Below the pieces are notes generated by a model that was given only the letters and a program-made list of their open reading frames with translations, ran no database searches and had not been told where the DNA came from. A stretch of 19,843 nucleotides of DNA from a virus (taxonomy: Duplodnaviria > Heunggongvirae > Uroviricota > Caudoviricetes): IMG/VR virus record IMGVR_UViG_2724679236_000005, positions 1 through 19,843 of that record; one strand, written 5' to 3'. Shown piece after piece: positions 1 through 19,841 of this stretch. Each line of letters begins with the position of its first letter. Position 1 is the first letter of the stretch. A program made the translations under genes and the position numbers.

Positions 1-58
1 CCGTGGAATATATTTTAAGAGAGAACAAAAATTGCAATATGTGGTGGACCCATACAAA
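1..58. repeat. Left arm of a perfect 58-bp terminal inverted repeat (partner 19784-19841)
   Basis: Bases 1-58 are the exact reverse complement of 19784-19841, checked base by base; identity ends at 59/19783. The right arm lies 2 nt inside the window end, so the repeat may extend beyond the left edge. Confidence 0.9.
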
Positions 59-1285
59 CTCTTGATATGCCCGATTATATTCGTCATTATAAGTTTTCTG
101 TTCTTCATCTGATTTTTCATCCGGAATAAGCCACTCCAGTTTCTTTACGACAGCCCATATAATCTTCCCGAATTTGACGCAACCTTCTCCAAAATTGACG
201 ATGCCATCCCACATTTTTTTCATACTTTCTGGTTTTACCCACTCAGTAATTGTGCTGACAAAACCACCCTGATTATCCTTAAACCAGGATGTAAATGTTT
301 CACGTACTGAGTCAAACGTCGGCGCGAGTTCCCCCCCGATTTTACCGAGTGTATCTGCAAGTCCCGACGTAATAGAGCCCCACAGATTTGTCACTGATAC
401 ATGCGCACGCGCCGCCCCTTCCGCACCCTCTTTTGTTAACAAATTCGACTTTTGCGCGTCAGACATTGTCTGTTCCCAGCTTTTACCCGTCGCCTTCATA
501 TACGTCATGATCTTATTAGCCTCGCCCCCCATGAGCTGGTCAGCGAGACTCGCCGCTTGCTTCTCATCTTTCATTTCAGAGATGCGACGCATAACCTCAT
601 TAAACTGTTTTTCCCGATCCCAGCCAGCCATTCGTTTTTTCGTCAGGCCAATTTGAAATAACATGGGATTCAGGCTTTTTTCGTTTCCGATTTCGCCGAT
701 TTTATTTGTAAGTTCTTCAGACAAATCCCCGATATTTTCGCCGTTCAGGCCCGCGGCTTTACCAATATTTTCCCACGCAGCATATTTTTCGACGCCAACG
801 CCGTAGGACTTCGCCAGACCGAGTTTTTCTGACGTCTCTGCATTCATTGCCAGCGCACCAGCTGCAGCACCGCCAATGAGCCCTGCCGCGCCAAGTGTCC
901 CCCATTTGATACCCCGCCCCGTAGCCCTCACCGCACCTGCGGCGGCTCGTCCGCCCCATTTTGCAGCTCCTTTTGCGCGACCCGTCCACTTCTCCAGCCG
1001 CTGTTTTTTAGCAAGTTGAGTATTCAGCGCCTCCTGGTCCTGCGTTGTCGCTTTTATTCGACGGTCCAGCTTTTGATACTGAGCAGATAAATCAGAAACG
1101 TCTTTACCTGCCAGTTTCATTGCTGCGATTTTGTCTTTTAATTTATCCTGACTTTTCGTTAATTTCCCGACAGTAGACGACGTCTGCCGAATCGCATCAT
1201 TGAGTTCTGTTGTACCGCGACGAAACGACGGGTCTATTCGCCCACCGAATACAACCTGCGTTTTAAAGTTTTGAGAAATAGCCAT
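1..1285 (-). CDS. Tail tape measure protein, N-terminal ~428 codons only (ORF open to the left window edge)
   Basis: ATG at 1285-1283, preceded by an in-frame stop. Hand translation of 1285 to 1010 and 301 to 2 shows no stop. Starts MAISQNFKTQVVFGGRIDPSFRRG, then coiled-coil-like and Gly/Ala-rich segments typical of tape measure proteins; sits directly after the E/E' chaperone gene as in P2 (E-E'-T). Absent from the ORF track presumably because it has no stop in the window. Confidence 0.75.
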   Translation of the reverse strand, partial: MAISQNFKTQVVFGGRIDPSFRRGTTELNDAIRQTSSTVGKLTKSQDKLKDKIAAMKLAGKDVSDLSAQYQKLDRRIKATTQDQEALNTQLAKKQRLEKWTGRAKGAAKWGGRAAAGAVRATGRGIKWGTLGAAGLIGGAAAGALAMNAETSEKLGLAKSYGVGVEKYAAWENIGKAAGLNGENIGDLSEELTNKIGEIGNEKSLNPMLFQIGLTKKRMAGWDREKQFNEVMRRISEMKDEKQAASLADQLMGGEANKIMTYMKATGKSWEQTMSDAQKSNLLTKEGAEGAARAHVSVTNLWGSITSGLADTLGKIGGELAPTFDSVRETFTSWFKDNQGGFVSTITEWVKPESMKKMWDGIVNFGEGCVKFGKIIWAVVKKLEWLIPDEKSDEEQKTYNDEYNRAYQEFVWVHHILQFLFSLKIYST

Positions 1286-1675
1286 CGATTTTCATGACCT
1301 CGTTTACATAGAAATTAAAAACCCGGTACGGCAGGTCCATTTGCGTATCGGGCGGGATGGCAAGTTTTTTCGCAATAAACGGAATCAGAATAACTATATC
1401 TGATGTCGGTCTTTCGGGGGCTTTACCAGTTCGTTAAACGCGGCCTCCATTTGATCGTAATCGCACGCAGGCAGTGCATATAAATCCTCACGCTCCAGAT
1501 TTGCCAGGCGCGCCAGCATTGTCGCTGTCCGCTCTTCAAGACCACTTTTATCGTTACTGAACATAATGCGGTCGCGTAATTTTGGTTCGCGAATAGTAAT
1601 TGTATCGCGGCTCTCCCCCTTAATAATAAACGGGCGAGAGAGCGTAATAGTCATACTGTCTAATAATGATTCCAT
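1263..1675 (-). CDS. Putative gpE+E' fusion product made by programmed -1 frameshifting (tail assembly chaperone)
   Basis: The -1 frame relative to gpE is open from 1433 to a TAA at 1265-1263 and crosses the tape measure start codon, the same arrangement as P2 E/E'/T and lambda G/GT. No canonical XXXYYYZ heptamer in the 1397-1433 overlap; candidate slip region is AAG CCC CCG AAA G. Confidence 0.45.
1394..1675 (-). CDS. Tail assembly chaperone (P2 gpE-like)
   Basis: 93-aa ORF between the tube gene and the tape measure gene, the conserved position of gpE in P2-type tail operons; followed by an open -1 frame. Confidence 0.7.
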   Translation of the reverse strand: MESLLDSMTITLSRPFIIKGESRDTITIREPKLRDRIMFSNDKSGLEERTATMLARLANLEREDLYALPACDYDQMEAAFNELVKPPKDRHQI

Positions 1676-1687
1676 TTTATTTGCCTT

Positions 1688-2200
1688 TTAATATACATGG
1701 AGAATACGAGCAACGCCCGCAAGAACGTCAACACCATTAATTACTCGTTTCATTTTTGCAGGATGAATCTCGTAAATAATTTTTCCATTTTGAACTCGTT
1801 TATAATAGCTCGGCGCAATCGTTACTGATTGCCCAACTGCTGATTTTGAATCAGTCCCCTGCGCGTCATCAGTAATCGCCGTAATAAGCCCCTCATATGT
1901 ATCAATACGTTCAAAATTGACACCGTAATTGTCAGTATATGCACTTCGAATTTCGAACCTTGTTTTAGCACCTGGTATTAATCCAAAATACCCCATCACA
2001 CCAGAATCGGAGCCAGAGACTTTAAAACTGGCTGACATTTTCTCCATTCCCCCGTCCAGAGTGATAGCTGTATCCATAGCGCCCGTCTTAAAATCATCTT
2101 CGATTATTTTCATATCGACGGGAGTGTATTCAGTGCAATTTAAAACTCGTTCTCCCTGGACGAACAACGCAAATGCACGATAGGTGTTACTATCTGCCAT
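1688..2200 (-). CDS. Contractile tail tube protein (P2 FII-like)
   Basis: 170 aa; C-terminal segment YYKRVQNGKIIYEIHPAKMKRVINGVDV resembles the P2 FII C-terminus as recalled; immediately downstream of the sheath gene. Confidence 0.85.
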   Translation of the reverse strand: MADSNTYRAFALFVQGERVLNCTEYTPVDMKIIEDDFKTGAMDTAITLDGGMEKMSASFKVSGSDSGVMGYFGLIPGAKTRFEIRSAYTDNYGVNFERIDTYEGLITAITDDAQGTDSKSAVGQSVTIAPSYYKRVQNGKIIYEIHPAKMKRVINGVDVLAGVARILHVY

Positions 2201-2217
2201 ATCAATTCTCCAGATTA

Positions 2218-3717
2218 TTAGACTGTTTCTTTAAAAAGAGGGGCCAGAGCTTCAACTGTGTAATCATTATTAATGCGGTACATTAACGTAATTGTTTGTG
2301 CCGGGGATTTCGGTCCAAAGTCAACATTAATATAAAGATTACCAGCGGCCAGACTTTCTTTTGTATTTAACTCTTCATCTAACCACGCCCGTCCTCCGTT
2401 AATCGCGCCCTGCTCCTCTAATTTATGCAGATACGCGTTTATCGACTCTACAACGTCTGTTCCGAGGTGCAGGTCTATCGGGCGATCAATAAAATCGGTC
2501 ATCATTGCCCGGGCTATTGAATCTTCAATTACGTCAGCTGTCCGACGAACGCACTCGAAAGACCATTGAGGGCTGAGGCTGCACAGATAGTTACCCCAGT
2601 GCCTAAACCCGTCATAGCGAATAATTGTGCTGACCTGGCTGGCGTTCAACAGGTTCGCTGTGCAGTTTGTCTCACCAATAATAAAATCGTCGACTTGTTC
2701 AAGCCCTGTAACTCCGTAGATATTCTGGTTCGATTTACTCCACCAGAATCCTTTTTCATTATCAATTCTGGCTCGCAAACCAGCAGCGATAGCTGAATAC
2801 GGACGAGATAACCCACTGACATCACTCGTAGAATAAACGCGAGGGCGTAAAATTTCCATCCTGGCGCCATATCTCTGACGACGATTAACAACGTCTGTGG
2901 GTGTAGCGCCTCGCGGTGAATCTATATACCCAACACCGCGTAATTTATTTGTCACGACCTCAAGTTGTTCGGCAATATAATCGTTGGCGCTATAATCAGG
3001 AGCGATTAAAATTCTCGGCGTTACTTGATTTATTTGCGCAGACGTCAATAATGCGTTAATTCCGGTAACGACATTTTTCCTCATTTTTGTTTCGTCGCTG
3101 TCTTCTTCAACGCGAACCACAACAATAATGGCGTCTTCCTGATTTAGTATTTCAGATACAGCAGGCGGGAGGGTACCGTACCACCCGAGCAACTCAGATT
3201 TTTTTTTGCTTCCTGCGATTACCGTCGGAATATTGCATGGGAAAGACTCATCTTTACCACCTGATAAATTTGTTGGAGGAAGGGCGAATACAGTACCCGT
3301 TCCTGCGTGATCACCACCGAAAGTGACATTAATAGATTCTCCCAGTGGAAGACCTTCTTTATATTGCTGATTTTGATCAGCCAGTTTTGACGGTGTAGTC
3401 GCGCCGTCTGTTGTCAATGTTAATTTTCTCGAACCATCGGGTAGCGTGCTATATCCTGGAGTGGCTACACTCCCGTTAATGCCGACATTGACGATTTCGA
3501 CAATCCAGTTGTTTCCGTCGGCCCCTGGCATCACTGTTGAAAACTCAACGAGATTATCTGCGAGTTCTGAACCCCATAATAGAAACGATCTGGCGGCGAT
3601 GCTGGCGTCGGGCGCTGTGCCAACAACACCGATTACTGACACGTCGACGGTGGAAATTTCTTTTGTGCCGTCGTCGTATTCAAGCGTGCGCGGACCGTGC
3701 AAAAAATTAGTGCTCAT
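2218..3717 (-). CDS. Contractile tail sheath protein (P2 FI-like)
   Basis: 499 aa; motifs AAGLRARIDNEKGFWW and IIRYDGFRHWGN match conserved P2 FI sheath segments as recalled; ATG at 3717 with weak SD. Confidence 0.9.
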   Translation of the reverse strand: MSTNFLHGPRTLEYDDGTKEISTVDVSVIGVVGTAPDASIAARSFLLWGSELADNLVEFSTVMPGADGNNWIVEIVNVGINGSVATPGYSTLPDGSRKLTLTTDGATTPSKLADQNQQYKEGLPLGESINVTFGGDHAGTGTVFALPPTNLSGGKDESFPCNIPTVIAGSKKKSELLGWYGTLPPAVSEILNQEDAIIVVVRVEEDSDETKMRKNVVTGINALLTSAQINQVTPRILIAPDYSANDYIAEQLEVVTNKLRGVGYIDSPRGATPTDVVNRRQRYGARMEILRPRVYSTSDVSGLSRPYSAIAAGLRARIDNEKGFWWSKSNQNIYGVTGLEQVDDFIIGETNCTANLLNASQVSTIIRYDGFRHWGNYLCSLSPQWSFECVRRTADVIEDSIARAMMTDFIDRPIDLHLGTDVVESINAYLHKLEEQGAINGGRAWLDEELNTKESLAAGNLYINVDFGPKSPAQTITLMYRINNDYTVEALAPLFKETV

Positions 3718-3728
3718 TTATTTTACTC

Positions 3729-4910
3729 TCAATTAGTTATGCGCCCGTCTGTAACGGTGCCGTAAATGCCACTTTTGGCGTTCTGGAAAACCTGCGCCCC
3801 GTATTTTTCAATGTCTTTCAGATTGGACGTAAATATAACGTCATTATCTATTCCGTCAATATTACACACAACGCAGATATAATCATGCTCATATGAGTTA
3901 AGGGTTCCGTGTTTTTTTGGATAATAAGGTTCCCTTATATTTAGCATTTTTGATATATCCCCGATTGGAATTCGCTGCGCCATCACCAGAGCATCTCCGC
4001 TCGTTGCCGCTAGTGTCATCCATGCGCCGCACAAATAGGTTTCAACATTGGCGTTGACACTGGTTGGGCTTATCGCGTAAGGGGACGCATCGTAACCCGT
4101 CACGATGGCCATCGCAGGAACAACACTGATGTTGTCACCACCATATAACACGACGAGATTAAACGCCCCGTCCCCGTTTGGTTTTGCAAAACCGGAACTA
4201 GTGTTTACATTTCCCGCCGCATCAGGTTGTATATTATTTACTGTGAGAACCGGTTTTGTGCCATTTATATTATTTATATCACCATCAATTTCTAAAAATT
4301 TATTATCCACCTCATCTTTTTTATAATAGTTATTTAAATCAACGCCGAGATTTTCCCGACTGGCCTGTTGCGCCGCCGCGCCTTTATTTTTAATTTCAGA
4401 TAAATTTTTGTTTATCTGCAAATAACGCTTATCGGCATCAGCCTGACTCATTCCACTACTGTTATCAATAACGACATTAACCGTAGACGTGCTGGACACC
4501 GCGAGAGTGTATTTATACGTGATTGATATCAGTGCACCGTTGCTATTCGTCGGTTTTAAAATATCCGGCGAACGCGCAACTGAATATAATTCGCCTTTAT
4601 CGGTTAATATCCCCACCTCGCGGATAGTATAACCGCCGGTTTCCGGCGGTACGTACAGTGTAAAAATGACCTGATTACCGCTATTTTCTGACGATTTAAT
4701 ATTTCCGCGATATGTCTCGTGAATTAATGCTGTTCGTGCCGGGTCCGGTGTTACGTCGTCGTTTCCGTTTGCGTCGCCAATAACGAATTTATTCAGCACC
4801 ACGGGTACACCCGATGCCAGCGCAGCGGCTTCAAGTTGCGCCCCCCGGTCTGTCAGTACCGCATAAACCTGGCTCGCGCTCGCTTTCAGATTTGATTTTA
4901 ATTTAGCCAT
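3729..4910 (-). CDS. Tail fibre protein with P2 gpH-like N-terminal baseplate-attachment domain
   Basis: 393 aa; N-terminal LIHETYRGN...VPPETGGYTIREVGILTDKGELYSVA resembles the P2 H N-terminus; Asn/Ser/Thr-rich middle; C-terminal region not recognisable. Overlaps gpI stop by 8 nt. Confidence 0.8.
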   Translation of the reverse strand: MAKLKSNLKASASQVYAVLTDRGAQLEAAALASGVPVVLNKFVIGDANGNDDVTPDPARTALIHETYRGNIKSSENSGNQVIFTLYVPPETGGYTIREVGILTDKGELYSVARSPDILKPTNSNGALISITYKYTLAVSSTSTVNVVIDNSSGMSQADADKRYLQINKNLSEIKNKGAAAQQASRENLGVDLNNYYKKDEVDNKFLEIDGDINNINGTKPVLTVNNIQPDAAGNVNTSSGFAKPNGDGAFNLVVLYGGDNISVVPAMAIVTGYDASPYAISPTSVNANVETYLCGAWMTLAATSGDALVMAQRIPIGDISKMLNIREPYYPKKHGTLNSYEHDYICVVCNIDGIDNDVIFTSNLKDIEKYGAQVFQNAKSGIYGTVTDGRITN

Positions 4911-5529
4911 TAGGTCCTATCTCCACTAACAAACTCACAATTGGCGAGCCTGATATATATAGCCCGCCGTTAATTTTTACACCGCCGTCGCCGTCTGCTG
5001 GGATATTTACGCCTATTTTTGCGTAAGCTGCACCAGCGATATAGAATTCACCGTCAACACTTGTTTCGAAATTTATTTCTTTTAATAAGGAACGACAGTT
5101 TTTTGCATCAAATATTTGTGCAATAAACGTGTTCAATAGTTCTAAATCTAATCCCATGTTTTTTAGCAAGTATATTTTAATTGCGAACGTATACGGGTCA
5201 TCCCTGGGCGTGGCCTCAAACCACTCCCGCATTTTGCTCTCAAACCCTACCGTTAATAACGCGCGTTCGACGGCACCACGCGTTCCACGGTGTTTGTTTT
5301 GCCACGCCGCTGCTTTGATAATTTCGCGTTTTTGCTGCTCGCTCCAGTCCGGGTTCCAGTACGTAACTGCATATTCCCATGCCAGCCACGGCAGCAGATT
5401 TGCAGGGCACAAATCGGGATTCTTAATAATTCGAATATCGCCAGGCAGATCGCCGACGTGAGATAAAACAACTTCCAGCGCTCTCTCGGGGGTTATTGCG
5501 TTCGGAGGCAGTACGCTTTGACTTGTCAT
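4903..5529 (-). CDS. Baseplate/tail protein (P2 gpI-like)
   Basis: 208 aa; motif NPDLCPANLLPWLAWEYAV matches the conserved gpI motif NPDTCPANLLPWLAWA as recalled. Confidence 0.85.
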   Translation of the reverse strand: MTSQSVLPPNAITPERALEVVLSHVGDLPGDIRIIKNPDLCPANLLPWLAWEYAVTYWNPDWSEQQKREIIKAAAWQNKHRGTRGAVERALLTVGFESKMREWFEATPRDDPYTFAIKIYLLKNMGLDLELLNTFIAQIFDAKNCRSLLKEINFETSVDGEFYIAGAAYAKIGVNIPADGDGGVKINGGLYISGSPIVSLLVEIGPNG

Positions 5530-5531
5530 GG

Positions 5532-6452
5532 CTACCCCATTTGCACGCTGAGTTTGATTCCTGTGCAGTGCGGAGCCTGTCCAACGCCAGCAATCACGTC
5601 CTCTGTTGGCGATATCAGAATCACACGCTCAGTGCCGTCACGGTGTATCGCGTCGTAAATTCCTGACAGAGCTGCTGTTGCTCCGATTTTATGCTGCGTG
5701 GCCACGTATATAGCTAAATCGCTCTGAGCACCGTTAAGCAAAACGTTCTGGTCGGGTCCAAGCCCAGCTACGATAACGGCCTCAACCCGGTAATTCAGGT
5801 TCGACGCGGGTTTTACAGTCACGAAATCAGTCAGCGGTCGAGTATCGTCAGGAGACAGGGCCGCATTCACTGTATTCAGTAGTGATTGCGGAGGTGCACC
5901 GTCGCCTGTTCGGGACAAAACGTACATATCGACGTACCCTGGTTGTGTCACCGGCGGTCCGTATGCCTGAGCTGACAGAACGTCGGGATCACTCGATAGC
6001 GCGAAATAGTTATACGCGTTTGTACTGCCAGCAGTATTCCGCGCGTACCACGATAGCTGTATGCGATGACGATACTCGTCGTCACTCTCGTAAACCGCCT
6101 CAGTCGGGGGAATCGCATCACGATTAGCTGGCGTTATCAACAGCCGCAGGCAGTCAAAATTAGCGCCAATCTGGTCGAGGTCCCCCTCTTTTGCAAACGC
6201 GAGTAATACCGCGAGCATCCCCTGATTTACCCGCGCTGTAATGATAATTTCTCTGTATGCAACTATTTCCAGCAGTTTAACGGCCGGGTCTGACTCCAGG
6301 AGTGCGTTAAATTGTGGATATAATATCTGCAGCTCTGACAGTAGATTAGATTTAACATCTGAAAATAGCGGGGTTTTAACAAACGTGGGCGGCGGCAGCA
6401 GACTCATATCAATAGTTTTCACTATCGAATTCTGAACTGTTGATGTTATCAA
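5532..6452 (-). CDS. Baseplate assembly protein (P2 gpJ-like)
   Basis: 306 aa; N-terminal region aligns with P2 J as recalled. The track start is TTG at 6452, overlapping the gpW stop (TTGA); first ATG is codon 16, so the start is uncertain. Confidence 0.85.
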   Translation of the reverse strand: MITSTVQNSIVKTIDMSLLPPPTFVKTPLFSDVKSNLLSELQILYPQFNALLESDPAVKLLEIVAYREIIITARVNQGMLAVLLAFAKEGDLDQIGANFDCLRLLITPANRDAIPPTEAVYESDDEYRHRIQLSWYARNTAGSTNAYNYFALSSDPDVLSAQAYGPPVTQPGYVDMYVLSRTGDGAPPQSLLNTVNAALSPDDTRPLTDFVTVKPASNLNYRVEAVIVAGLGPDQNVLLNGAQSDLAIYVATQHKIGATAALSGIYDAIHRDGTERVILISPTEDVIAGVGQAPHCTGIKLSVQMG

Positions 6453-6790
6453 AATATCAGCTCCATATTATTAAACTCTAATCGCTGTTGTGTTTCGATA
6501 TCTGTTGCGATAATTAATATTGTTATTTTCCCGACATCCACTGCTAACACATTTATTCTGTCAATTCTGACGCGTGGTTCCCAGCGAGCTATTGCGCCAG
6601 CGCTTTCCATGATTATTCGCATAGCAAGCGACGGATCTGTGGGATTATCAACAAGATCAAATAATTTGCTGCCATATTCTGGCAACATTACACGCGTCCC
6701 CAGCGGGGTCGTTAAAATATCAACGATAGACTGACGAATGTGATCAGTCCCCGATAAAGGCTTACCGGTGTTACGGTCCATTCCAAGCAT
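6449..6790 (-). CDS. Baseplate wedge protein (P2 gpW / T4 gp25-like)
   Basis: 113 aa; MLGMDRNTGKPLSGTDHIRQSIVDILTTPLGTRVMLPEYGS aligns closely with the P2 gpW N-terminus as recalled. Confidence 0.9.
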   Translation of the reverse strand: MLGMDRNTGKPLSGTDHIRQSIVDILTTPLGTRVMLPEYGSKLFDLVDNPTDPSLAMRIIMESAGAIARWEPRVRIDRINVLAVDVGKITILIIATDIETQQRLEFNNMELIF

Positions 6791-6792
6791 AT

Positions 6793-7695
6793 TTACGCCA
6801 TTGGTTGGTTCGGTTGTTGTGTTTCCCCATCAGGACATGTGTGAGTGTGTCCGTTGTACGTTGTGCGGACCTCAGTTATTGTGCCTTGTCGGTCCTGCAC
6901 CTCTTGCCCTGCTAACACACTACCGCGAGTTGTGATATTACCTGTTCCACCGTTATCTCCAGTGACAGAAATATCGTTGCGGAATGTCGCCAGTTTATCA
7001 ACAACCAGCGTTTCTGTTATATGCGTTGGACCTGCTAGCGTTATCCCGCCGGGCGCTAATGCTCTTATTGTTTCTGCCGTCAGCGATATACTATTCGCGG
7101 CGGTAACATTTACTGAACTTGTTGCTATTACGTTCACTAAATCAGCGTGCGCGTTAATTGTATCTGTCGCTGTCACGTTAATAACGTCAGCGTCTGCGTT
7201 AATTAATTTTCCGCCGTGAATATTGACAACGTTTTCACTTGTGACCGTAACGTCTGCGCGACCCAAAATTTCTATTTTGGATTCGCCGAGAATTTTTACA
7301 ATTCCTTCTGGTACTCCTTGCCAGATGAGAGTGTGGTTTTCTGTGTTATAGGTTAGCGTTGCGCCGTCACAATATGCGGTGACGTGGTCGTGAGGGTCAG
7401 TACTGGGCGGTGCTTTGTTGTCAATATGTAATCCGAGCATGACGACGCCATTTCGCGTATCTCCCCCCTCAGAAACAACAGTGACTGGGTCGCCAACAGA
7501 TGGGGCGCTCCAGTCCACGCGCTCCGATGTCGCGTGCGTGAACCATTGTAGCCAGCCCGATTGGTGTTCTCCACCAAACGACACGCGACATCTTGGAGGA
7601 TTCATCTGAACTGCAGCTATGGTGCCGCGTTTAACGGAGTCACGCAGCCGGCGAGCGTTCTCCGCGGAGGCGTATTCATCGTCCGATTGGGCCAT
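6793..7695 (-). CDS. Baseplate spike/hub protein (P2 gpV-like)
   Basis: 300 aa; N-terminal CRVSFGGEHQSGWLQWFTHATSERVDWSAPSVGDPV aligns with P2 V; long beta-helix-like repeat region; C-terminal GHTHTCPDG resembles the His-rich spike apex. Confidence 0.85.
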   Translation of the reverse strand: MAQSDDEYASAENARRLRDSVKRGTIAAVQMNPPRCRVSFGGEHQSGWLQWFTHATSERVDWSAPSVGDPVTVVSEGGDTRNGVVMLGLHIDNKAPPSTDPHDHVTAYCDGATLTYNTENHTLIWQGVPEGIVKILGESKIEILGRADVTVTSENVVNIHGGKLINADADVINVTATDTINAHADLVNVIATSSVNVTAANSISLTAETIRALAPGGITLAGPTHITETLVVDKLATFRNDISVTGDNGGTGNITTRGSVLAGQEVQDRQGTITEVRTTYNGHTHTCPDGETQQPNQPMA

Positions 7696-8212
7696 AGTAG
7701 TCGCTCTCGTGTTCTGCGCCGATATCTGGCGCTATTCCGACGTATATATTTTTCAGGGTTCCCTGTGAGGGATAATCGAAAATATCGGGACCAACGCCGA
7801 TAACTTGCGTGAACGACACGCACTGAACTGAATGCGAACCGACTGACTGCCCGTTTTTAATCCAGTCACACGGTTCCGCGTCGCTGAATTTTGCCGGTTT
7901 AGTTCCGGGACCGAACATTCGCCCATTAATCCAGCTCGTCATATAGAGCGCTGCATTTTGCGATTTCAGTCCGTACTGATCAGCTGCAAACTCTCGCAAC
8001 AAATACAAATTACACGACAGCTCGACTGACTGAATTGAGCTTGCAACCGCTTCGTCACTCTGTGACCAGTTGCTGATTTCCAGGAACAGAGCTGGCGTTT
8101 CAAATCCAGCCGGAATTTCTGGATAAATACCGAATGTTTTGATGAACGGTATTTGTAAAACCGCGCCTTTAACGCGATCAAGATATTCGTCAAATGCATC
8201 CAGTCCGCTCAT
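7676..8212 (-). CDS. Hypothetical tail-associated protein (position of a tail completion protein)
   Basis: 178-aa ORF, ATG at 8212 overlapping the upstream stop (ATGA), immediately upstream of gpV; no family recognised by eye. Confidence 0.3.
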   Translation of the reverse strand: MSGLDAFDEYLDRVKGAVLQIPFIKTFGIYPEIPAGFETPALFLEISNWSQSDEAVASSIQSVELSCNLYLLREFAADQYGLKSQNAALYMTSWINGRMFGPGTKPAKFSDAEPCDWIKNGQSVGSHSVQCVSFTQVIGVGPDIFDYPSQGTLKNIYVGIAPDIGAEHESDYYGPIGR

Positions 8213-8889: not shown

Positions 8890-8919
8890 GGTTCCCCCTT
8901 AGTAGGACCGCGGTCCCAC

Positions 8920-12477: not shown

Positions 12478-14051
12478 CAGTTACCTCCCCAGCCGTTATC
12501 GTTGGTATTTGAGGGGTGAGATACAGACCATGACGGTTCGCTCAGCCCCATTTCACGCCGGCGCTGAATTTCGTATTCCTGTTGCTCCATAACCTCCTCG
12601 TAATCCTGTCCCTGCAGCGCCAGTTCGTTCTGATACGTGCTGAGGCCAGTTGTGATACGCATTGCACTCTCCTGAACCTCTTTCAGTCCGTCGATGGCCA
12701 TGCGACCTGCACCGATCCAGAGCGCGTTCGTCCAGGAGTTCCGCGCTTCATAAAATGACCGGACAGCTGAGCGAGGCAGAGTGATAATCCCGCGCGCCAG
12801 CGCCTCCTCAAACCAGCAGCAGAACATCAGCGACGCCTGCCGCGCGGCGATAAAACGTCTGCGCCCCATAAAAAACCGCCAGCTCACGTTCGCGCTGGCC
12901 CGGGCGCTGGAGTAACTGACCTGGCTGTAGTCCCGGCTCAGTTCCTCGTATGACGCGCCGACGCCGGCGGCAACGTAACGCAGGAGTGATTTTTCCAGCG
13001 AACTGAAACCAGCGTCAGCGTTCTGAGCGGTCTGTAAACTGAGTTTGTCGCCGGGGTGCAGGTGAGGGACTTTCACGCCGCCTAATTTAATGTTTGCGCC
13101 GTTGTAGTACGTCACGTAACTCTGAATAAACGAATTCAGTGGGTTCGAGTCGATATCAGTACCCGCGCCGGCGATATATTCAAACGCCTGCTGACTGTCG
13201 AGCTCTGATTCGATTGTCGCGGCGTACATGGCCTTAACAATCGCGCTCTGCAGCTGTGTTTGCTGCAGTGTGTCGAGCATTTTCAGGCGCTCCATGACGC
13301 TGTAAAAAATATTGTCCCCGCGGGTCTGTCCGTCCTCGAGCGGCTCGAATATGTGGATGAATGCGTGTCTGCCGCTGCTGAGCTGTGCTGGGATACGCCG
13401 GCATTTACCGACTCCGCCGAGAGGGTAAGTATCCTCGGCTATCCAGTACCCGACCGCGGCCCCGTTTTTATCGATATCAACACCGGCGCGGCGAAATTGA
13501 GTGTCAGCTGCGTAACCCGGATTTCGAATCCGTTTCGGTGAGACCATTTTGAATCGCGTCCGAAAAACGCTGCCGGCACTACTCTCCCAGACTGGTTGTA
13601 CGCAGGTTTCACCGTTGAAAGCGTGAGTAGCCACGCCCTCGCGGATCATCATTGTGAACGTCCGTTTCCGCTCGATATCAATCGTGCAGTGAGGGTCCTC
13701 GGCGTATTCAGTCCACGCTACCTCGACGTCACGCGCCAGCGCCCTGGCGTCCTCGCGAGATATGCCGAGGTAACGCCAGTTAGGGCGATAACTCAACTTA
13801 AACAGATTGCCGACGATATGATCCTGGTGCAGTTGCACGGCGTTCGACGCGACGCCGTTATTGCGAACGAGATCGTCTGCTCGCGCGTTACCGCGATAAA
13901 AATTCGGCAACAGTGCTGCGTCGGCGCTCTGCTGTGGTGCGTTCCAGTCAATCAGCTGGCCACCGAAACCGGGACCGCCGCCGTTATACCCCGCGTAACG
14001 GCGTAGTGGCGTTTTACCGTCAGGCCCGAGCAGCTGCTGCGGAGCAGTCAT
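12477..14051 (-). CDS. Portal protein (lambda gpB-like)
   Basis: 524 aa; N-terminus LLGPDGKTPLRRYAGYNGGGPGFGGQL...AALLPNFYRGNARADDLVRNNG...QLHQDHIVG is near-colinear with lambda B as recalled. Confidence 0.95.
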   Translation of the reverse strand: MTAPQQLLGPDGKTPLRRYAGYNGGGPGFGGQLIDWNAPQQSADAALLPNFYRGNARADDLVRNNGVASNAVQLHQDHIVGNLFKLSYRPNWRYLGISREDARALARDVEVAWTEYAEDPHCTIDIERKRTFTMMIREGVATHAFNGETCVQPVWESSAGSVFRTRFKMVSPKRIRNPGYAADTQFRRAGVDIDKNGAAVGYWIAEDTYPLGGVGKCRRIPAQLSSGRHAFIHIFEPLEDGQTRGDNIFYSVMERLKMLDTLQQTQLQSAIVKAMYAATIESELDSQQAFEYIAGAGTDIDSNPLNSFIQSYVTYYNGANIKLGGVKVPHLHPGDKLSLQTAQNADAGFSSLEKSLLRYVAAGVGASYEELSRDYSQVSYSSARASANVSWRFFMGRRRFIAARQASLMFCCWFEEALARGIITLPRSAVRSFYEARNSWTNALWIGAGRMAIDGLKEVQESAMRITTGLSTYQNELALQGQDYEEVMEQQEYEIQRRREMGLSEPSWSVSHPSNTNDNGWGGN

Positions 14052-14281
14052 AATCGAACTCCCACGGGCCGACGGCGTCCCGTACTCAGACCGAGCTGTG
14101 ATTTCAGCTCGATAATGTACGTTCGGAGCTGCTCAATACTCGCCTGCGAGTATTGATAGCTCCGGTTATTTCCTGCTGAATCGCCGTGAGACAGCGACAC
14201 GGTCGATTTACCCGTTAATAATTTGTGCAGAGCGATTTCCGCTTCCAGCAGTCGTTCTGTTAAAACCTCGCGCGACGTCAT
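14048..14281 (-). CDS. Head-tail joining / head completion protein (lambda gpW-like)
   Basis: 77 aa; EAEIALHKLLTGK...LRTYIIELKSQLG...RRRPVG matches lambda W motifs (AAARAALHDLMTGK...KYIAELEVQTG...RRRGPAG) as recalled. Confidence 0.85.
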   Translation of the reverse strand: MTSREVLTERLLEAEIALHKLLTGKSTVSLSHGDSAGNNRSYQYSQASIEQLRTYIIELKSQLGLSTGRRRPVGVRL

Positions 14282-16242
14282 TAGCTCCCTCCGAGCATTC
14301 TGGCCATCTCCTCGAGAGACAGTTTGTTTTGTGATTTTTTCCGTTGCTCAGCGAGCGTCTCGAGATTGAGCTGAAAACGAATTTTACTGATACGCAGCGC
14401 CGCCAGTCCGTACACCCAGCAGTCGAGCGCTTCATTTCGCCGGCCCTGATTGTCCCAGCGATAAACGACGCGACCGTTAATGAGTTTTGGGATCAGAACT
14501 TCGGAGACGAGCTGTTTTGCCTCTGTCGTGCCGAATATTTCATCGTCATTGGGAAAATGAATTGCGCCCGGTGTCGCCGATTTAGGGTCGGGTTCCAGCG
14601 GCAGACGCATCGCGAGCAAATCTTTTGCCGTATCAGTACCGATTAACGATAAATAAACTTTATTCGCGTTACGGGTACGCGGCATATTTACGACCGGCTG
14701 GCCGTATGAGCTCGCGCCTTTGATCGGAATGACCCACAGCGGACCGAGTTTGAGCGAGCGGTTATAAACGACCTGCGCGTCTATACCACCGGTATCCCAC
14801 GCCCAACGACTGACGCCGATTGTGGTCCCGTCGCTGCGCTGGTATTGTTTACGAATCACTCCGTCGACGCGCTGCAGCGTGTCCTCCTCGTCGTAGCGAC
14901 CGAGGACGATTGTTTTATCAATCAGCCAACACTCCTCCTCAGATCCCCAGCCCCACACGTAACACTCGTAGCGCCCGGACGTCTGAGAGTCGATGCCGCC
15001 GGTTATATAAACAACACCGTCAGGAACCTGGCTGGCGTATTTTTCCCGGCGATTAACGAGAATATCGTGCTCCAGCTGCTCGCTGGCCACGTCGCTCCAG
15101 AGCTCGCCGAGCGTCGTGTTATGAAACGTTTTTTCTTTGAGTGGGTCGCCTTTCGCTTTCAGCCACTCGCTGACAATCTCGCCCCAGCCGTCGAGATTCA
15201 GTGAATACAGGGCGTTTATCACGATCGCCGCGTGTTTCGGCGCGCGAACGACACCACCGTCGTGATCAAAAAAATGAATACCGTCCCGCGTCCAGGTGCA
15301 GTCCTCTGCTATCCAGCGCCCCGCGAGCTCCATTTTTTCGAGATCGCGATAGTAAAAATGCTCCGGGCAGTGGCAGCACTGGTAATACGCGGACGACGAT
15401 CTCGCCTCATTTGTCTGCAGGCTGTTATCCCATTTGAGGCCATATTCGATGCCGTCGAAACCAAATACCAGGACCTGCTCCTCGCCACAATGCGGACACT
15501 TCAGGTAAAAACGAAACGTCAGATCGGCAGCGTCTTCGAGCATTTCTATATGGCTTTTACCGGTGACTGTCGGTGTCGAACCGAAAATTGCCTTCGGGTA
15601 CGCTGCCCCTTTAATTCGAACGAGCGCAAGCTCGATTGGCGAGCCCTCGCCTTTGCCTTTTTTGGCAACTTCCAGCGGCCAGCCGTCGACCTCGTCACCC
15701 TCGACAACCTGTTTCGTTAGTCGCCGGAAATTTCCTGGCGTACTCGCGCCGCGAAAATCAATAATCGCGCCGTTCATTTCTTTACGCTGGAGATTGTTAC
15801 GCTCGTTGCTTTTATCCCAGTCGGGGAAAATTTTCTGAATCACCGGCATTTCGGCGATAGCGGGGTCAACCTCGTCGGCGACAAATCCATCCGATTCGTC
15901 ATCGATAGGCTGATAGACCACGGCACTACGTTTTTTGTGCTCAGCGAAATAGAGCAGCGCCGCGACGAGTATTTTTGTATAACCGAGACGAGCTGATTTG
16001 CGAACAGACACTATTTTTATCGCGTCGTTTGTCATCATATTCAACATCACAATCTGGACCGGCTGAGTCGTCCAGTGACCCGCAATATGGCTGGAGCCTT
16101 CGGGGAGGTAAAAATATTTATCAGCCCACTCAACCCCCGTCATCGGTATCGTCACGCGCAAGGGATTCAACCCTGTCGAGATCGCGTTCGATATCGCTGA
16201 CATCGTAATCGCTGAAGTCGACTCGTATGTCTGCCAGTTCAT
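14281..16242 (-). CDS. Terminase large subunit (lambda gpA-like)
   Basis: 653 aa; VEWADKYFYLPEG, VRKSARLGYTK, EGSPIEL, GSTPTVTGKS, CPHCGEEQ are all colinear with lambda A motifs as recalled. Start uncertain: track start 16242 overlaps terS by 113 nt; in-frame Met codons also at 16203 and 16143. Confidence 0.95.
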   Translation of the reverse strand: MNWQTYESTSAITMSAISNAISTGLNPLRVTIPMTGVEWADKYFYLPEGSSHIAGHWTTQPVQIVMLNMMTNDAIKIVSVRKSARLGYTKILVAALLYFAEHKKRSAVVYQPIDDESDGFVADEVDPAIAEMPVIQKIFPDWDKSNERNNLQRKEMNGAIIDFRGASTPGNFRRLTKQVVEGDEVDGWPLEVAKKGKGEGSPIELALVRIKGAAYPKAIFGSTPTVTGKSHIEMLEDAADLTFRFYLKCPHCGEEQVLVFGFDGIEYGLKWDNSLQTNEARSSSAYYQCCHCPEHFYYRDLEKMELAGRWIAEDCTWTRDGIHFFDHDGGVVRAPKHAAIVINALYSLNLDGWGEIVSEWLKAKGDPLKEKTFHNTTLGELWSDVASEQLEHDILVNRREKYASQVPDGVVYITGGIDSQTSGRYECYVWGWGSEEECWLIDKTIVLGRYDEEDTLQRVDGVIRKQYQRSDGTTIGVSRWAWDTGGIDAQVVYNRSLKLGPLWVIPIKGASSYGQPVVNMPRTRNANKVYLSLIGTDTAKDLLAMRLPLEPDPKSATPGAIHFPNDDEIFGTTEAKQLVSEVLIPKLINGRVVYRWDNQGRRNEALDCWVYGLAALRISKIRFQLNLETLAEQRKKSQNKLSLEEMARMLGGS

Positions 16243-16696
16243 TCAGGGCTATCGCCAGCTCCTCTCGTAATACACTGCTCGCCTCCTGCGGCATTTCAGG
16301 CCACACCTTTTTCAATCGTGGTGGCCATGACTCGACGCGGGTACGTAATTCAACGGCGACGCGAGATACAGCGACGCTAATTAATTCAATTGGCGCGTAA
16401 CGTTTAGCGAGAATGCGGCGTTTTACTCGTGCCATCAGGATTCGCTCCTGTCGTTCCTCATTTTTCAGCCACTGCTCGCGATTTTTTTCGGGAGAATTGT
16501 CCCCCACTTCCGGTTCGTCTGTACCAATTGTGTCGCGTCTATTGCTCCGGAGATAACGAATATAAAAATGGCGCCATGCGTCAAGTTCCCAATCGCCACG
16601 TCCTTGGGGGACTGGAGCTCCCGGAAGTTTTGCGAGATCGCGCAGACGACGATCAGATAGCAGTAAATGTGCTGCGACCTCAGCCTGACTTGCCAT
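16130..16696 (-). CDS. Terminase small subunit (lambda Nu1-like, N-terminal HTH)
   Basis: 188 aa directly upstream of and overlapping terL; N-terminal LSDRRLRDLAKLPGAPVPQGRGDWELDAWRHFY resembles the Nu1 DNA-binding region; SD GAGGA 7 nt upstream of ATG 16696; cos-like sequence immediately upstream. Confidence 0.7.
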   Translation of the reverse strand: MASQAEVAAHLLLSDRRLRDLAKLPGAPVPQGRGDWELDAWRHFYIRYLRSNRRDTIGTDEPEVGDNSPEKNREQWLKNEERQERILMARVKRRILAKRYAPIELISVAVSRVAVELRTRVESWPPRLKKVWPEMPQEASSVLREELAIALNELADIRVDFSDYDVSDIERDLDRVESLARDDTDDGG

Positions 16697-16699
16697 TAA

Positions 16700-16810
16700 A
16701 AATCCTCACCGGAACCGGAAATACCCAAAATGAAAAAATACTAAAAATGAGTGAGTTTTTGCGCGTCTACCGACCCTCGGTGTTTTGGATTTCGGAAAGG
16801 ACCCGCGACC
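16700..16810 (-). other. Putative cohesive-end site (cosQ-like, cosN-like dyad, cosB-like region) upstream of terS
   Basis: Minus strand carries CGGGTCCTTTCCG (16805-16793), identical to the 13-mer in the lambda right-end cosQ region as recalled, then ~18 nt later the dyad ACCGAGGGTCGGT (plus 16769-16781), then an AT-rich stretch ending TATTTCCGGTTCCGG next to the terS start. Confidence 0.5.
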
Positions 16811-17050
16811 AGAGAGGCTATCTCCCTTTCAGGACAGGAATCGGGGGCTCGCATCAGGTTCATCAAACTCAACTGTAGCCTCGCGACGTACTTGTTTGCA
16901 TACCTCAGCTTTGTGTATCTGATTATCAGCGTAAGCTTTCACTTTGGCAGCGAGCCATCCTTTTGCGCTGTATCGATAGATTACCGAACAAGTTTTCGAT
17001 ATATGTATATATCTTGAACTTATTGATATCCTTACAGAAAAACAACAGCC

Positions 17051-17311
17051 ATGAGCACACAAAAAATGAACAGAGAAAAAATTGAAGCCTTAATGAGCGT
17101 AATATTAAAAGAAGCTGACCCAAAAAAGTTTCCTGAGAAGTTATCAGAGGACGCCGTCGTATCTTTTTATCGTGCGAACTCCTCTTATCTACATTGTCCA
17201 ACTTTAAGAGAATGGTTAAGCGGCGAAGCAGAGCCTTCAGATGAGATACTTGAGGAGATTATGGTTCAGAACAACTGGCGCGCAACTAAATGGTCAAATC
17301 GGTTACCTTAA
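17051..17311 (+). CDS. Hypothetical small acidic protein (accessory/moron gene)
   Basis: 86-aa ORF opposite in orientation to the flanking late genes, downstream of an AT-rich region (16880-17050); weak SD; no family recognised. Confidence 0.45.
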   Translation: MSTQKMNREKIEALMSVILKEADPKKFPEKLSEDAVVSFYRANSSYLHCPTLREWLSGEAEPSDEILEEIMVQNNWRATKWSNRLP

Positions 17312-17579
17312 CCTGTTGAATGTGTGCCGCCTTGAAACAAAAAGGCGACCTCTCATTTAAGTAAAACGTCTCTTACATCAGGTACCAGCTCTTTGGCACA
17401 TTGCGCAGTTGTTTTTTATACGTCGGCGAGCTGTTGCGAAGCTCAGTCCCTGCGCGTCACACCATTCTTTCGGTGATACACATGATTTGACGTACTCGGA
17501 CAGGAATCGCTTCTGAAGCTCAAGCCCAGTCCCGGTTTGCTCATGTAATTAAATCCTACTGTATTCTCATGGTGCCCAG

Positions 17580-17921
17580 ATGTCGTCTATGCTTTTAACT
17601 CGAACATTCAATGAAGAGAAATGCTCTATGGTTATTGGTATGCAGGAATCAAAAAATTGCCCTGTATGCGGCTCTGATGCCACATGGACAAATCACGATA
17701 CGTGCTGGAAAATTCATTGCAGTGGTTTTTGCGGTGATTTTTTAATCACAACCACTACGATAAATTATCTGAAGGGCGATGCACTAAGGCGTCTTGATGC
17801 CAACGATCTCTTAAGAGAGCCAACAACACTCAAGACACCTTTAACAAACAAAATCCTTGCTGAATATGCTCGTACAAAATATCCCGTGCACATCTTTGAA
17901 GGTCACTATCCGGGCTATTAG
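17580..17921 (+). CDS. Hypothetical Cys-rich (zinc-ribbon-like) protein
   Basis: ORF with CPVCG...C-x4-C-x3-C cluster; more likely start is ATG at 17628 (GAAGAG upstream) than 17580; stop overlaps the convergent minus-strand ORF by 3 nt. Confidence 0.45.
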   Translation: MSSMLLTRTFNEEKCSMVIGMQESKNCPVCGSDATWTNHDTCWKIHCSGFCGDFLITTTTINYLKGDALRRLDANDLLREPTTLKTPLTNKILAEYARTKYPVHIFEGHYPGY

Positions 17922-18196
17922 TCAGTGCTAGTAACTTTCGGAATAGGAGAAATTTTAGATGTGTGATAATTCATCTCGTCGATAGTCTGAGGAATTAACT
18001 CACTCGCGCCATTTGCAACTGCAACGCGATAATGCGGTCCATTCCATCGACTAAAATCGGAGCGTTCATAAATTACCACCTCATCCCCCACAGAAACCCT
18101 TAACTCCGTGCTACCTACGGGTTCAATAGCGGAATTAGAATAAATGTCTTCAACACGACCGTGAAAAGGCCCACCAACGAACAAAAACTGTGACAT
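17918..18196 (-). CDS. Hypothetical protein
   Basis: 92-aa ORF; ATG at 18196 with AGGA 8 nt upstream; no TMD, no recognised motif. Confidence 0.45.
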   Translation of the reverse strand: MSQFLFVGGPFHGRVEDIYSNSAIEPVGSTELRVSVGDEVVIYERSDFSRWNGPHYRVAVANGASELIPQTIDEMNYHTSKISPIPKVTSTD

Positions 18197-18334
18197 ATAA
18201 TTTCCTATTAAAAAATAACCAGTTAAATCGGCATTTAAAAATATGTCATATTTATGATTCTGTCTTTAGCACCTTTGTGTGGTCAGGTTGCCTGGGCCAA
18301 ATGATCAATCATCAATTCATTAAGATAAATTACC

Positions 18335-18529
18335 CTATTTTCCAACAGGGCATGAAGCCACTGCCCCAGTTGAATCAATACAACCACCGTCCGCAGTGGT
18401 AATTTTCGTACCCGGCGCGATCATCACGTGTTTAATACTGCTGCCGTCAGCGCGAGTCGCTTCGGTGTATGTCGAATGTGTGCAGCCTGCCAGCGTGAAG
18501 AACGCGACAGCTAAGAGAAGTTTTTTCAC
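18335..18529 (-). CDS. Small outer-membrane lipoprotein in the lysis cassette (possible o-spanin-like or Bor/Cor-like)
   Basis: 64 aa; GTG start 7 nt after the endolysin stop with AGGT upstream; signal peptide MKKLLLAVAFFTLAG-C with lipobox LAGC and Thr at +2; two further Cys in the mature part. Confidence 0.6.
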   Translation of the reverse strand: MKKLLLAVAFFTLAGCTHSTYTEATRADGSSIKHVMIAPGTKITTADGGCIDSTGAVASCPVGK

Positions 18530-18536
18530 GTTTTAC

Positions 18537-19016
18537 CTACGCTTCTGAGATAGATTTCTCAGCATTCACCAATGGAAGTGATTGTGGAACATCCGTTTGA
18601 CCTGCTGGCCAGCGATAGCCTGTTACGCGGGAACGAGGAAAAGCTTTGATATTTACTTCATCTGCCTGGTTACCACCCAAAATCATTAAATCCCCGGCGG
18701 CATTTTTCCCGACAACAAAGCCAACGTGACCACCGCCAGACCGAGACAGAATAGCAATGCATCCATAGGCGGGTTCCTTCAGTTCATTACCCCAATCGAG
18801 ATAAGAATTCGCAGACTCAAAACGCGTTGAGCGAATACCCGCACGTTCCAGCATTGCCCCGGTGAAAGCAGCGCACCACGGTGTTTCGTCATCCTTAATG
18901 CCGCCGCGTTTGATATCTTTCCAGTACTGCACAATTTCTGCAGCATGTTGCTTCCCTTTCATTTCCCGAATGCCGAGGTTTTTTCGAGCCTCAATTAGCC
19001 ATTTCGGATCGGTCAT
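18537..19016 (-). CDS. Putative endolysin, Cys/His peptidase type (CHAP/NlpC-P60-like, TIGR02594-like)
   Basis: 159 aa; candidate catalytic Cys in ETPWCAAFTG and His in GGGHVGFVVG; no signal peptide or TMD; sits after two membrane proteins. Confidence 0.6.
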   Translation of the reverse strand: MTDPKWLIEARKNLGIREMKGKQHAAEIVQYWKDIKRGGIKDDETPWCAAFTGAMLERAGIRSTRFESANSYLDWGNELKEPAYGCIAILSRSGGGHVGFVVGKNAAGDLMILGGNQADEVNIKAFPRSRVTGYRWPAGQTDVPQSLPLVNAEKSISEA

Positions 19017-19288
19017 TACCTGTCTCCTGTTATTTTTGAAATATTTCCTCGTGCCCGCCAGACAGCAATACAGATGGTGAGATTGAGAAAGAACTCTGCG
19101 GGATCAACCTGCGTATATTTTCCGTATAAAATTCGTAGGGCTATCCAAGCAGCAGACAGAATCGCCAGGTAAGCAGTTAGTGAGATAAAAAAACGATAGC
19201 GGCCTGTTTTTTGAAAAAACATCAACCGTAGTGCCAACATCAGACAGATAATTGCATTGGCATTGATGAGGACAGAGTGCAGGGTCAT
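19016..19288 (-). CDS. Small membrane protein with three predicted TMDs (holin or antiholin-like)
   Basis: 90 aa with three hydrophobic segments; ATG overlaps the upstream stop; directly upstream of the endolysin gene. Confidence 0.5.
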   Translation of the reverse strand: MTLHSVLINANAIICLMLALRLMFFQKTGRYRFFISLTAYLAILSAAWIALRILYGKYTQVDPAEFFLNLTICIAVWRARGNISKITGDR

Positions 19289-19671
19289 TATTTCATCCCC
19301 TTATCTGATTTCCATAAACGAGCTTGTGACATGATCCGCAACAGTGATGTAACGCTGATTACTGATGCAACCAGTGCACCAATGGCGGGAGATACTTTTA
19401 CTGTTATGGGTGGGTTCAGGTGACTCAGCGCCGCATTCAGAATACCGGTAATGATGGCTGATGCTGTTTCAGCGCAATACACACCACCAACAAACGAAAT
19501 GAGTGCGAAAATAACCTGCTTCCAGAATCGATGCTGCCCAGACGACAACACATAGAGAGCTGCGCCTGCCAGCGCACAGATCATCACTGCAGGTGTTGCC
19601 TCAGGAAATAACGCAGCAAACGTCACCCCCGCCGAGCCAGCAGCAACGCCAGCGGTTAGAGGTTCAGACAT
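19288..19671 (-). CDS. Holin-like membrane protein (first gene of the lysis cassette)
   Basis: 127 aa from ATG 19671 (SD AGGA 8 nt upstream), 3-4 hydrophobic helices, charged C-terminal tail. The track ORF to 19839 uses a GTG inside the terminal repeat and is judged an over-extension. Confidence 0.6.
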   Translation of the reverse strand: MSEPLTAGVAAGSAGVTFAALFPEATPAVMICALAGAALYVLSSGQHRFWKQVIFALISFVGGVYCAETASAIITGILNAALSHLNPPITVKVSPAIGALVASVISVTSLLRIMSQARLWKSDKGMK

Positions 19672-19685
19672 GATTTTTCCTGATT

Positions 19686-19715
19686 CAGAAACGACAAAAC
19701 CCCGCCGTGGCGAGG
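19686..19715 (-). terminator. Putative intrinsic terminator/attenuator in the leader upstream of the holin gene
   Basis: Minus-strand RNA CCUCGC-CACG-GCGGGG (6-bp stem with one G-U) followed by UUUUGUCGUUUCUG, ending 14 nt before the holin SD; position analogous to lambda tR' between pR' and S. Confidence 0.35.
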
Positions 19716-19783
19716 TTCTTAGGGATTTGGCAACATACCAAATTAGCGTTAAATATGGCCTATTTTGTTCGGTTTTGCAAGTA

Positions 19784-19841
19784 TTTGTATGGGTCCACCA
19801 CATATTGCAATTTTTGTTCTCTCTTAAAATATATTCCACGG
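19784..19841. repeat. Right arm of the perfect 58-bp terminal inverted repeat (partner 1-58)
   Basis: Exact reverse complement of 1-58; lies in the putative late leader/promoter region upstream of the holin gene. Confidence 0.9.

Follow-up and report, generated by a model that had tools for sequence, protein, structure and literature searches.

Prophage late region and its terminal repeat

The window, i.e. the whole stretch of 19,843 nucleotides analysed here, is one complete draft contig (BBVS01000040.1, 19,843 bp), and the BBVS accession range belongs to Escherichia albertii CB9791, which was assembled from MiSeq reads with Platanus 1.1.4 (PMC4700944, supplementary table). The window carries a 19.7-kb prophage late region (57–19785, minus strand), the lysis, head and tail part of a defective prophage combining a lambdoid head with a contractile tail. 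On the basis of Pfam labels, the region encodes lysis and packaging functions (two holins, endolysin, small and large terminase), head proteins (gpW, portal, S49 protease, decoration and major capsid proteins), and tail proteins (head-tail and baseplate genes, tail fibre, sheath, tube, chaperone, and a truncated tape measure). E. coli prophages and phage vB_EcoM-705R4 are homologous to the window from 56/57 to 19785 only, and related prophages aligned to the window over the same interval. Neither Rfam nor a tRNA scan gave a match anywhere in the window.

The tail tape measure gene (59–1285, minus strand), flanked by the PF10109 tail assembly chaperone and by gpU, retains the N-terminal 409 of the 546 codons of its intact form, which was found as a 546-aa version in three relatives (loci L006–L008). 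The fragment matched positions 1–408 of 577 in phrog_3654, and weakly the tape measure phrog_8125. At the opposite end is located a 127-aa holin gene (19288–19671, minus strand; phrog_198 holin, PF16931), the reading frame of which remains open upstream to the window end (ORF 19288–19839). A terminator-like hairpin followed by a T run (19696–19719, minus strand) lies in the 112-bp intergenic region between the antiterminator gene Q and the holin gene, and the lambdoid gene order suggests that it may be a tR′-like element. A promoter scan of this spacer gave no consensus match, the hairpin being the only element recognised.

The two ends of the window are reverse complements of each other: bases 1–58 match 19784–19841 at 58/58 positions, in agreement with the original prediction of a perfect 58-bp inverted repeat at the termini, with the correction that the right arm stops 2 nt short of the window end (19843), the final GT also being sequence of the insertion sequence (IS) described below. 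Identity of the arms ends at base 59/19783, and a repeat scan of the window scored the same pair as 64 nt with 97% identity. The 27-nt arm core occurred exactly twice in the window versus zero expected occurrences (200 shuffles), a recurrence far above the chance level. The IS portion consists of positions 1–56 (plus strand, 56 nt) on the left and 19786–19843 (minus strand, 58 nt) on the right, and the repeat is completed to 58 nt by a chance match of prophage flank, bases 57–58 (AA) and 19784–19785 (TT). The retained IS lengths are asymmetric, 56 versus 58 nt, or 58 versus 60 nt when the common flank bases are included. No further copies of either IS end were found within the window.

The predicted placement of the arms was also confirmed, the left one after codon 409 of the truncated tape measure ORF, and the right one upstream of the holin gene. 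The last ca. 19 codons of the left ORF had been described as unlike tape measure sequence; this read-through (...EFVWVHHILQFLFSLKIYST) was reproduced, and the plus strand at 1–56 encodes transposase codons (...PVEYILRENKNCNMWWTHT).

An ISKpn28-like element of the IS481 family

Both arms represent the same end of one IS, namely the right inverted repeat (IRR) at the 3′-end of the transposase gene, the two ends of the element being distinguishable. The arm matched IS481-family elements in E. coli at 100%, and it was present in 1,392 of the 5,426 complete E. coli genomes, where the 1,729 matching places were under IS481-family or integrase-core transposase genes. The full element, as seen in four independent insertions, measures 1,096 bp from one target duplication to the other and contains a single open reading frame. 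Full copies have TGT...ACA ends and target duplications, which were 5 bp long in all four cases (GGAGA, TATTT, GAGTT and AATAC) with matching empty sites. The left (IRL, TGTGTAAGTTCACAGAGATATTGCAATT) and right (IRR, TGTATGGGTCCACCACATATTGCAATT) inverted repeats are imperfect, ca. 27 bp long, and begin with 5′-TGT; by manual count, they agree at 21 of 28 aligned columns, one gap included.

The 348-aa transposase ORF at the tape measure junction contained the Pfam domains HTH_32, rve and rve_3. Its top match by far was the NCBIfam model NF033577 (IS481) with 220–222 bits, just missing the curated cut-off of 224, and the RefSeq name of the E. coli copy is 'IS481 family transposase'. Elements of the IS481 family are ca. 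1–1.3 kb long with one ORF and no programmed frameshift, as described in ISfinder. On the basis of its size, its one transposase ORF encoding HTH and rve domains, its imperfect ca. 27-bp inverted repeats starting with TGT, and its short 5-bp target duplications, the element belongs to this family. Full copies aligned end to end with elements annotated as 'IS481-like element ISKpn28 family transposase', but with a nucleotide identity of only 75%, which indicates that this IS is a separate member of that group. The E. coli copies were ca. 92–97% identical to this IS, and a copy on an E. albertii plasmid 99.9%. A literature search for IS481 in E. albertii found nothing.

An IS had originally been considered unsupported, on the grounds that no transposase gene is present in the window. 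This rejection was wrong, because the transposase gene adjoins the window from outside, just past each end, and the arms are its last 18–19 codons, the only part of it within the window. Within the element, the transposase ORF lacks a stop codon; it terminates in flanking DNA. At the right end, the transposase frame is continuous with the open holin frame, and in the closed chromosome discussed below the two form a 511-aa transposase-linker-holin ORF.

Complete insertions in a closed chromosome and empty sites in relatives

Only one SNP separates the window from the closed E. albertii chromosome CP117678.1, in which complete IS copies are present at exactly both window junctions, each with its own 5-bp duplication. 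The two copies differ from each other by 1 nt and are mutually inverted, with the 19.7-kb late region between them in its native orientation. Both the full copies and the segment orientation were read directly from CP117678.1, which is near-identical to CB9791, and not from CB9791 itself. As a check of the species, the chromosomal flank had 88% identity to all E. coli, and a 27-mer of it matched, among species representatives, E. albertii NBRC 107761 only.

IS copy 1 (locus L005, 13662–14757) is inserted in codon 410 of the tape measure gene with the target duplication GAGTT, and the junction reads ...CAAGAGTT, IS, GAGTT TATGGATTCGGG. In the window, this duplication is seen as AACTC (57–61), the second duplicate and the remainder of the 1,096-bp element being located to the left, outside the window. 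In the same-species relatives L006, L007 and L008, the site is empty (...CAAGAGTT directly followed by TATGGATTCGGG) and the tape measure gene uninterrupted.

IS copy 2 (locus L030, 1597–2692) is identical to the window end down to its last two bases, and has the duplication AATAC in the junction ...GCGTATAATAC, IS, AATAC TTGCAAAACC. In the window, the duplication is GTATT (19781–19785), and the rest of the element lies to the right. The insertion point is inside the stop codon of Q, 112 bp upstream of the holin gene; the duplication keeps the Q stop, and the Q coding sequence of the E. coli locus L003 ends at this point. Empty sites (...GCGTATAATGCTTGCAAAA) were found in L029 and in the E. 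coli loci L003 and L004.

Had the left arm been an assembly product, an ordinary tape measure 3′ half followed by gpU and gpD would be expected to its left, with no copy of the arm. Instead, CP117678.1 has the full IS copy 1, and then the rest of the tape measure gene, gpU, X and D. Beyond copy 2 follows Q, which is frameshifted in CP117678.1. The comparison with related prophages, proposed together with the original prediction, demonstrated both sites empty and the tape measure intact in the relatives, and since both sites are empty there, two independent simple IS insertions are indicated. A rearrangement junction, which had also been suggested, was not observed, because the flanks are colinear with those of the empty-site relatives.

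The closed genome was reached through contigs encoding the lineage-specific sheath and a 436-aa protease, the endolysin and portal being too widespread; contigs encoding the 653-aa terminase ORF were not on record. Of the E. coli genomes with matches to the two flanks (432 and 22), none contained either junction, as searched by junction-spanning megablast against 5,426 complete genomes. The left-junction 30-mer had no exact match in viral, genome or metagenome contig collections, and the right-junction 30-mer none in the viral contig collection. The Q-holin junction was present in Logan contigs of other runs, which end 27–28 nt inside the IS.

Origin of the contig ends

Two independent IS481-family insertions in an E. 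albertii prophage, together with a contig broken at the repeats, very probably explain the ends of the window. The two 1,096-bp copies would have been inserted separately, one into the tape measure gene and the other at the end of Q, just upstream of the holin gene, in opposite orientation and with the IRR of each facing the intervening 19.7-kb segment; CB9791 probably shares this full structure with the near-identical closed genome. As the genome contains the IS more than once, a de Bruijn assembler would be unable to cross it, and the contig would stop ca. k−1 bases into each copy, the arm length presumably being k−1 for the k used. Given the asymmetric IS lengths, the exact relation suggested earlier (58 = k−1, k = 59) is tentative. 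The arms are confined to the termini and to ca. 58 nt because the assembler halted at the repeat, and the termini are reverse complements because both run into the same IS end in inverted orientation. The real genomic inverted repeat would be the full 1,096 bp, and the 58-nt length would reflect the assembler, not biology. As in other repeat-induced de Bruijn contig breaks, a whole contig stops at both ends inside a repeated IS, after 56–58 nt here and after 27–28 nt in related read sets, but in this case the flanking copies are inverted and mimic a terminal inverted repeat.

It is very unlikely that the inverted copies act as a recombination pair by which the 19.7-kb late region flips in a RecA-dependent manner, or that the arrangement is the product of an IS-mediated inversion. 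The copies in the closed genome are inverted, 1,096 bp long and 1 nt apart, and long inverted repeats of such kind are good substrates for homologous recombination; moreover, a draft contig cannot show its own orientation. However, CP117678.1 has the native order at both sites, i.e. Q, IS and holin at one and tape measure 5′ part, IS and tape measure 3′ part at the other. Each IS is also flanked by its own direct 5-bp duplication, with flanks colinear to the empty-site relatives, which therefore argues for two simple insertions and against inversion by intramolecular transposition. No invertase or recombinase gene is present in the window, and no evident regulatory effect would be expected from an inversion, because the Q-holin region sits inside the segment. 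As to the earlier proposal of a recombination site pair, homologous recombination between the 1.1-kb copies might conceivably turn the late region round, but no inversion was observed and the closed genome has the native orientation; a site-specific system plays no part. An invertible segment of the Gin/Cin/Hin type was likewise rejected, as the window has no recombinase ORF, the arms are IS ends, and only the native orientation was seen. The segment resembles the G segment of Mu and the C segment of P1 (Gin/Cin, 34-bp inverted repeats) in having inverted repeats around phage late genes, but differs in that it lacks an invertase gene, has IS ends as its repeats, was not seen in a flipped form, and comprises the whole 19.7-kb late region instead of a tail-fibre cassette. 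Equally improbable is the more speculative notion of the late module as a cassette that could be flipped by recombination or mobilised by the IS, with the stop-less transposase reading into the holin (the 511-aa ORF) to give a functional fusion or to couple IS expression to the late operon.

There is next to no likelihood that the 58-nt arm at one end, most plausibly the left one in the tape measure gene, arose as a spurious k−1 carry-over or a hairpin-type chimera and is absent from the genome at that place. The arms do lie at the contig termini, with a length within the k−1 range of a short-read assembler, but the arm is a real and widespread IS end, the independently assembled closed chromosome has the full IS with a 5-bp duplication at both the tape measure and the Q-holin site, and the Q-holin junction recurs in Logan contigs assembled independently from other runs. 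The arms are thus genuine DNA, of which the assembler accounts for the terminal position and length only; to this extent the earlier suggestion of a contig-end artefact was correct.

A composite transposon, in which both IS copies and the late region move as one ca. 21.9-kb unit, is extremely improbable. Its architecture of two inverted copies of one IS bracketing a segment is that of Tn5 and Tn10, but no sign was found here of the unit ever having moved. The DNA outside both IS copies is the same prophage continuing and each IS has its own duplication, and therefore the unit was not inserted as a whole; neither a single flanking duplication nor a second location was found. Complete E. coli genomes contained no segment with these junctions, and the left junction was absent from GTDB species representatives, metagenome contigs and viral contigs.

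Two further identities were rejected. A terminal inverted repeat of a linear phage does not agree with a window devoid of early, regulatory, integration and distal tail genes, nor with CP117678.1 and relatives, in which the prophage continues past the two IS sites. The end of a Mu-like transposable phage had been suggested by a match to Klebsiella phage KpF5.

The finding is an ordinary one which implies no new mechanism. It calls for caution, as phage-like contigs with perfect inverted repeats at their ends invite interpretation as genome termini, recombination sites or chimeras, when here such a repeat is two opposed copies of a common IS at which the short-read assembly broke. For the biology of the prophage, it represents ordinary decay in one E. 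albertii lineage, with a disrupted tape measure gene, an IS beside the control region of the late operon, and, in the closed relative, a frameshifted Q.

Terminal inverted repeat and origin of the contig

Bases 19784–19841 of the window are the exact reverse complement of bases 1–58, with the right arm stopping 2 nt short of the window end, and a repeat search scored the pair of arms as 64 nt at 97%. The 27-nt core of the arm was present in exactly two copies, one on each strand, and in none of 200 shuffles; the terminal repeat is real and cannot be due to chance.

An exact protein sequence match led to contig BBVS01000040.1 of assembly GCA_001514845.1, which has a length of exactly 19,843 bp and was identical over the 13.7 kb compared, and the window therefore represents the entire contig rather than an excerpt. 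Records BBVS01000001-100 belong to Escherichia albertii CB9791 (human, 2003), one of 26 draft genomes assembled from MiSeq reads with Platanus 1.1.4 (PMC4700944). The closed chromosome CP117678.1 (4.78 Mb, GCA_028622435.1) contains the same prophage with a single SNP relative to the window at position 3918, which falls in the tail fibre gene. Chromosomal DNA beside this prophage has 88% identity to every E. coli genome, and, out of 185,579 species representatives, a 27-mer of the flank matched E. albertii NBRC 107761 alone; both results support E. albertii as the species.

The window comprises a phage late region with every long ORF on the minus strand, in the order of lysis genes (two holins and endolysin), packaging and portal genes (small and large terminase, gpW, portal), S49 protease, decoration protein and major capsid protein, head-completion genes, baseplate V/W/J/I and tail fibre, sheath, tube and tail assembly chaperone, and finally the 5′ part of the tape measure gene. 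The coordinates of the repeat and the gene context of its arms had been described correctly in the original prediction. The tail-fibre module (3729–4910 and 3717–3729) was unlike that of the E. coli relatives: the 393-aa fibre gene is directly followed by the sheath gene, whereas E. coli prophages have a 394–403-aa fibre and a 129-aa ORF ahead of the sheath. Two small convergent ORFs, 17580–17921 (plus strand) and 17918–18196 (minus strand), are situated between the lysis and terminase genes. The plus-strand ORF, whose counterpart in CP117678.1 is a 97-aa product with a weak Lar restriction-alleviation Pfam match, resembles a moron-type insertion, and relatives vary in this region.

Identity of the repeat arms

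Alignment of related prophages, among them those of 442 complete E. coli genomes (each with 80% or more of the window aligned) and phage vB_EcoM-705R4, was confined to positions 56/57–19785, and therefore neither arm is prophage DNA. The arm alone returned 1,729 matches, chromosomal as well as plasmid-borne, in 1,392 of 5,426 E. coli genomes, always under genes annotated as “IS481 family transposase” or “integrase core domain-containing protein”. Two full E. coli copies reveal an IS of 1,096 bp that has TGT...ACA ends, carries imperfect terminal inverted repeats (IRL TGTGTAAGTTCACAGAGATATTGCAATT, IRR TGTATGGGTCCACCACATATTGCAATT), and generates 5-bp target duplications (GGAGA and TATTT). HTH and rve domains were identified in the transposase, for which IS481 was the top NCBIfam model (220–222 bits; cut-off 224), and plasmid copies annotated as “IS481-like element ISKpn28 family transposase” align end to end at 75% identity.

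The arm corresponds to IRR, the end at which the transposase gene terminates, and the IRL sequence was not found in the window; both arms are therefore the same IS end and belong to two IS copies in opposite orientation. Rejection of an IS in the original prediction was mistaken, as each arm consists of the final codons of a transposase gene that is located directly beyond that end of the window. The IS-derived portions are 1–56 and 19786–19843, and the exact repeat is 58 nt instead of 56 because the prophage flanks at 57–58 (AA) and 19784–19785 (TT) match by chance.

A full IS copy with 99.9% identity was located at 40794–41889 of the 100-kb E. albertii plasmid NZ_CP030784.2, a record that contains a further match as well, and the chromosomal copies could plausibly have come from this plasmid. 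In Klebsiella phage KpF5 (OR327748.1), the IS end is matched at 89.5% by positions 85–141, near the record start and under a transposase feature, where a related ISKpn28-like element seems to have been inserted in, or assembled into, the genome.

Two insertions and the ends of the contig

In CP117678.1, the left junction reads ...CAAGAGTT, the 1,096-bp IS, and GAGTT TATGGATTCGGG..., followed by the other 136 tape measure codons and by gpU, X and D. The right junction reads ...GCGTATAATAC, the 1,096-bp IS, and AATAC TTGCAAAACC...; here the IS is situated at the stop codon of Q, the antiterminator gene, with 112 bp between this site and the downstream holin start, and the target duplication AATAC leaves the stop intact. 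A single base distinguishes the two copies, which are mutually inverted with both IRR ends facing the 19.7-kb segment, and the actual inverted repeat extends over 1,096 bp.

In a de Bruijn graph, short reads are unable to bridge a repeated element of 1.1 kb, and a unique contig stops about k-1 bases into it. The same Q–holin junction was found in Logan contigs (k = 31) from other sequencing runs (SRR12535032, DRR017166), which retain 27–28 nt of the IS versus 56–58 nt in the window, and the retained length is therefore set by the assembler; it also differs slightly between the two window ends, so that the value proposed in the original prediction, 58 = k-1 with k = 59, is tentative. The earlier suggestion of a contig-end artefact thus accounts for why the repeat is terminal and short, since IS copies break the assembly, but fails if the sequence was meant to be spurious, as the full IS is present at both junctions in CP117678.1.

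The tape measure site is empty (...CAAGAGTT joined directly to TATGGATTCGGG...) and the 546-codon gene intact in three same-species relatives with 99.6–99.9% identity in the prophage and at least 99.6% in the chromosomal flank. The Q–holin site is empty (...GCGTATAATGCTTGCAAAA...) in locus L029 and in E. coli relatives, and neither insertion was found among complete E. coli genomes. With an own direct duplication for each IS and flanks colinear with the empty sites, the two events are independent simple IS insertions in the prophage. Homologous recombination between the copies could in principle invert the late region, but in CP117678.1 the segment keeps its native orientation relative to Q and, at its opposite end, to the 3′ portion of the tape measure gene, an inverted form was not observed, and inversion would have no obvious regulatory consequence. 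Inversion via intramolecular transposition and insertion as a composite unit are both ruled out by the separate duplications and colinear flanks.

Transposase reading frame and state of the prophage

The transposase ORF has no stop codon within the IS and ends in flanking DNA, giving a product of 348 aa for the tape measure insertion and, for the two E. coli insertions, products of 348 and 357 aa. At the Q–holin site the frame continues across the 112-bp spacer into the holin gene, forming a 511-aa transposase-linker-holin ORF in CP117678.1 (1655–3190 of the Q–holin locus L030; window part 19288–19843, minus strand), and for this reason the holin frame is open up to the window end. A terminator-like hairpin (19696–19719) lies in the Q–holin intergenic region within the span of this ORF.

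Adjoining the IS, to the right of the window end, Q of CP117678.1 (L030 927–1597) is frameshifted near codon 57 in comparison to the intact 223-aa Q of L029, and no gene is called there; this frameshift and the interruption of the tape measure gene suggest a defective prophage. Downstream of the window, the late control/tail gene gpD is called as 290 aa in CP117678.1 (16054–16926 of the tape measure locus L005) versus 347 aa in a same-species relative (L007 14953–15996), which may reflect further decay or a start-site difference. The Q frameshift and the shorter gpD fit a decaying prophage.

The terminal repeat is ordinary and fully explained as that of an IS-bounded contig from a draft assembly, and the IS family, insertion mechanism and assembly behaviour behind it are all already known.
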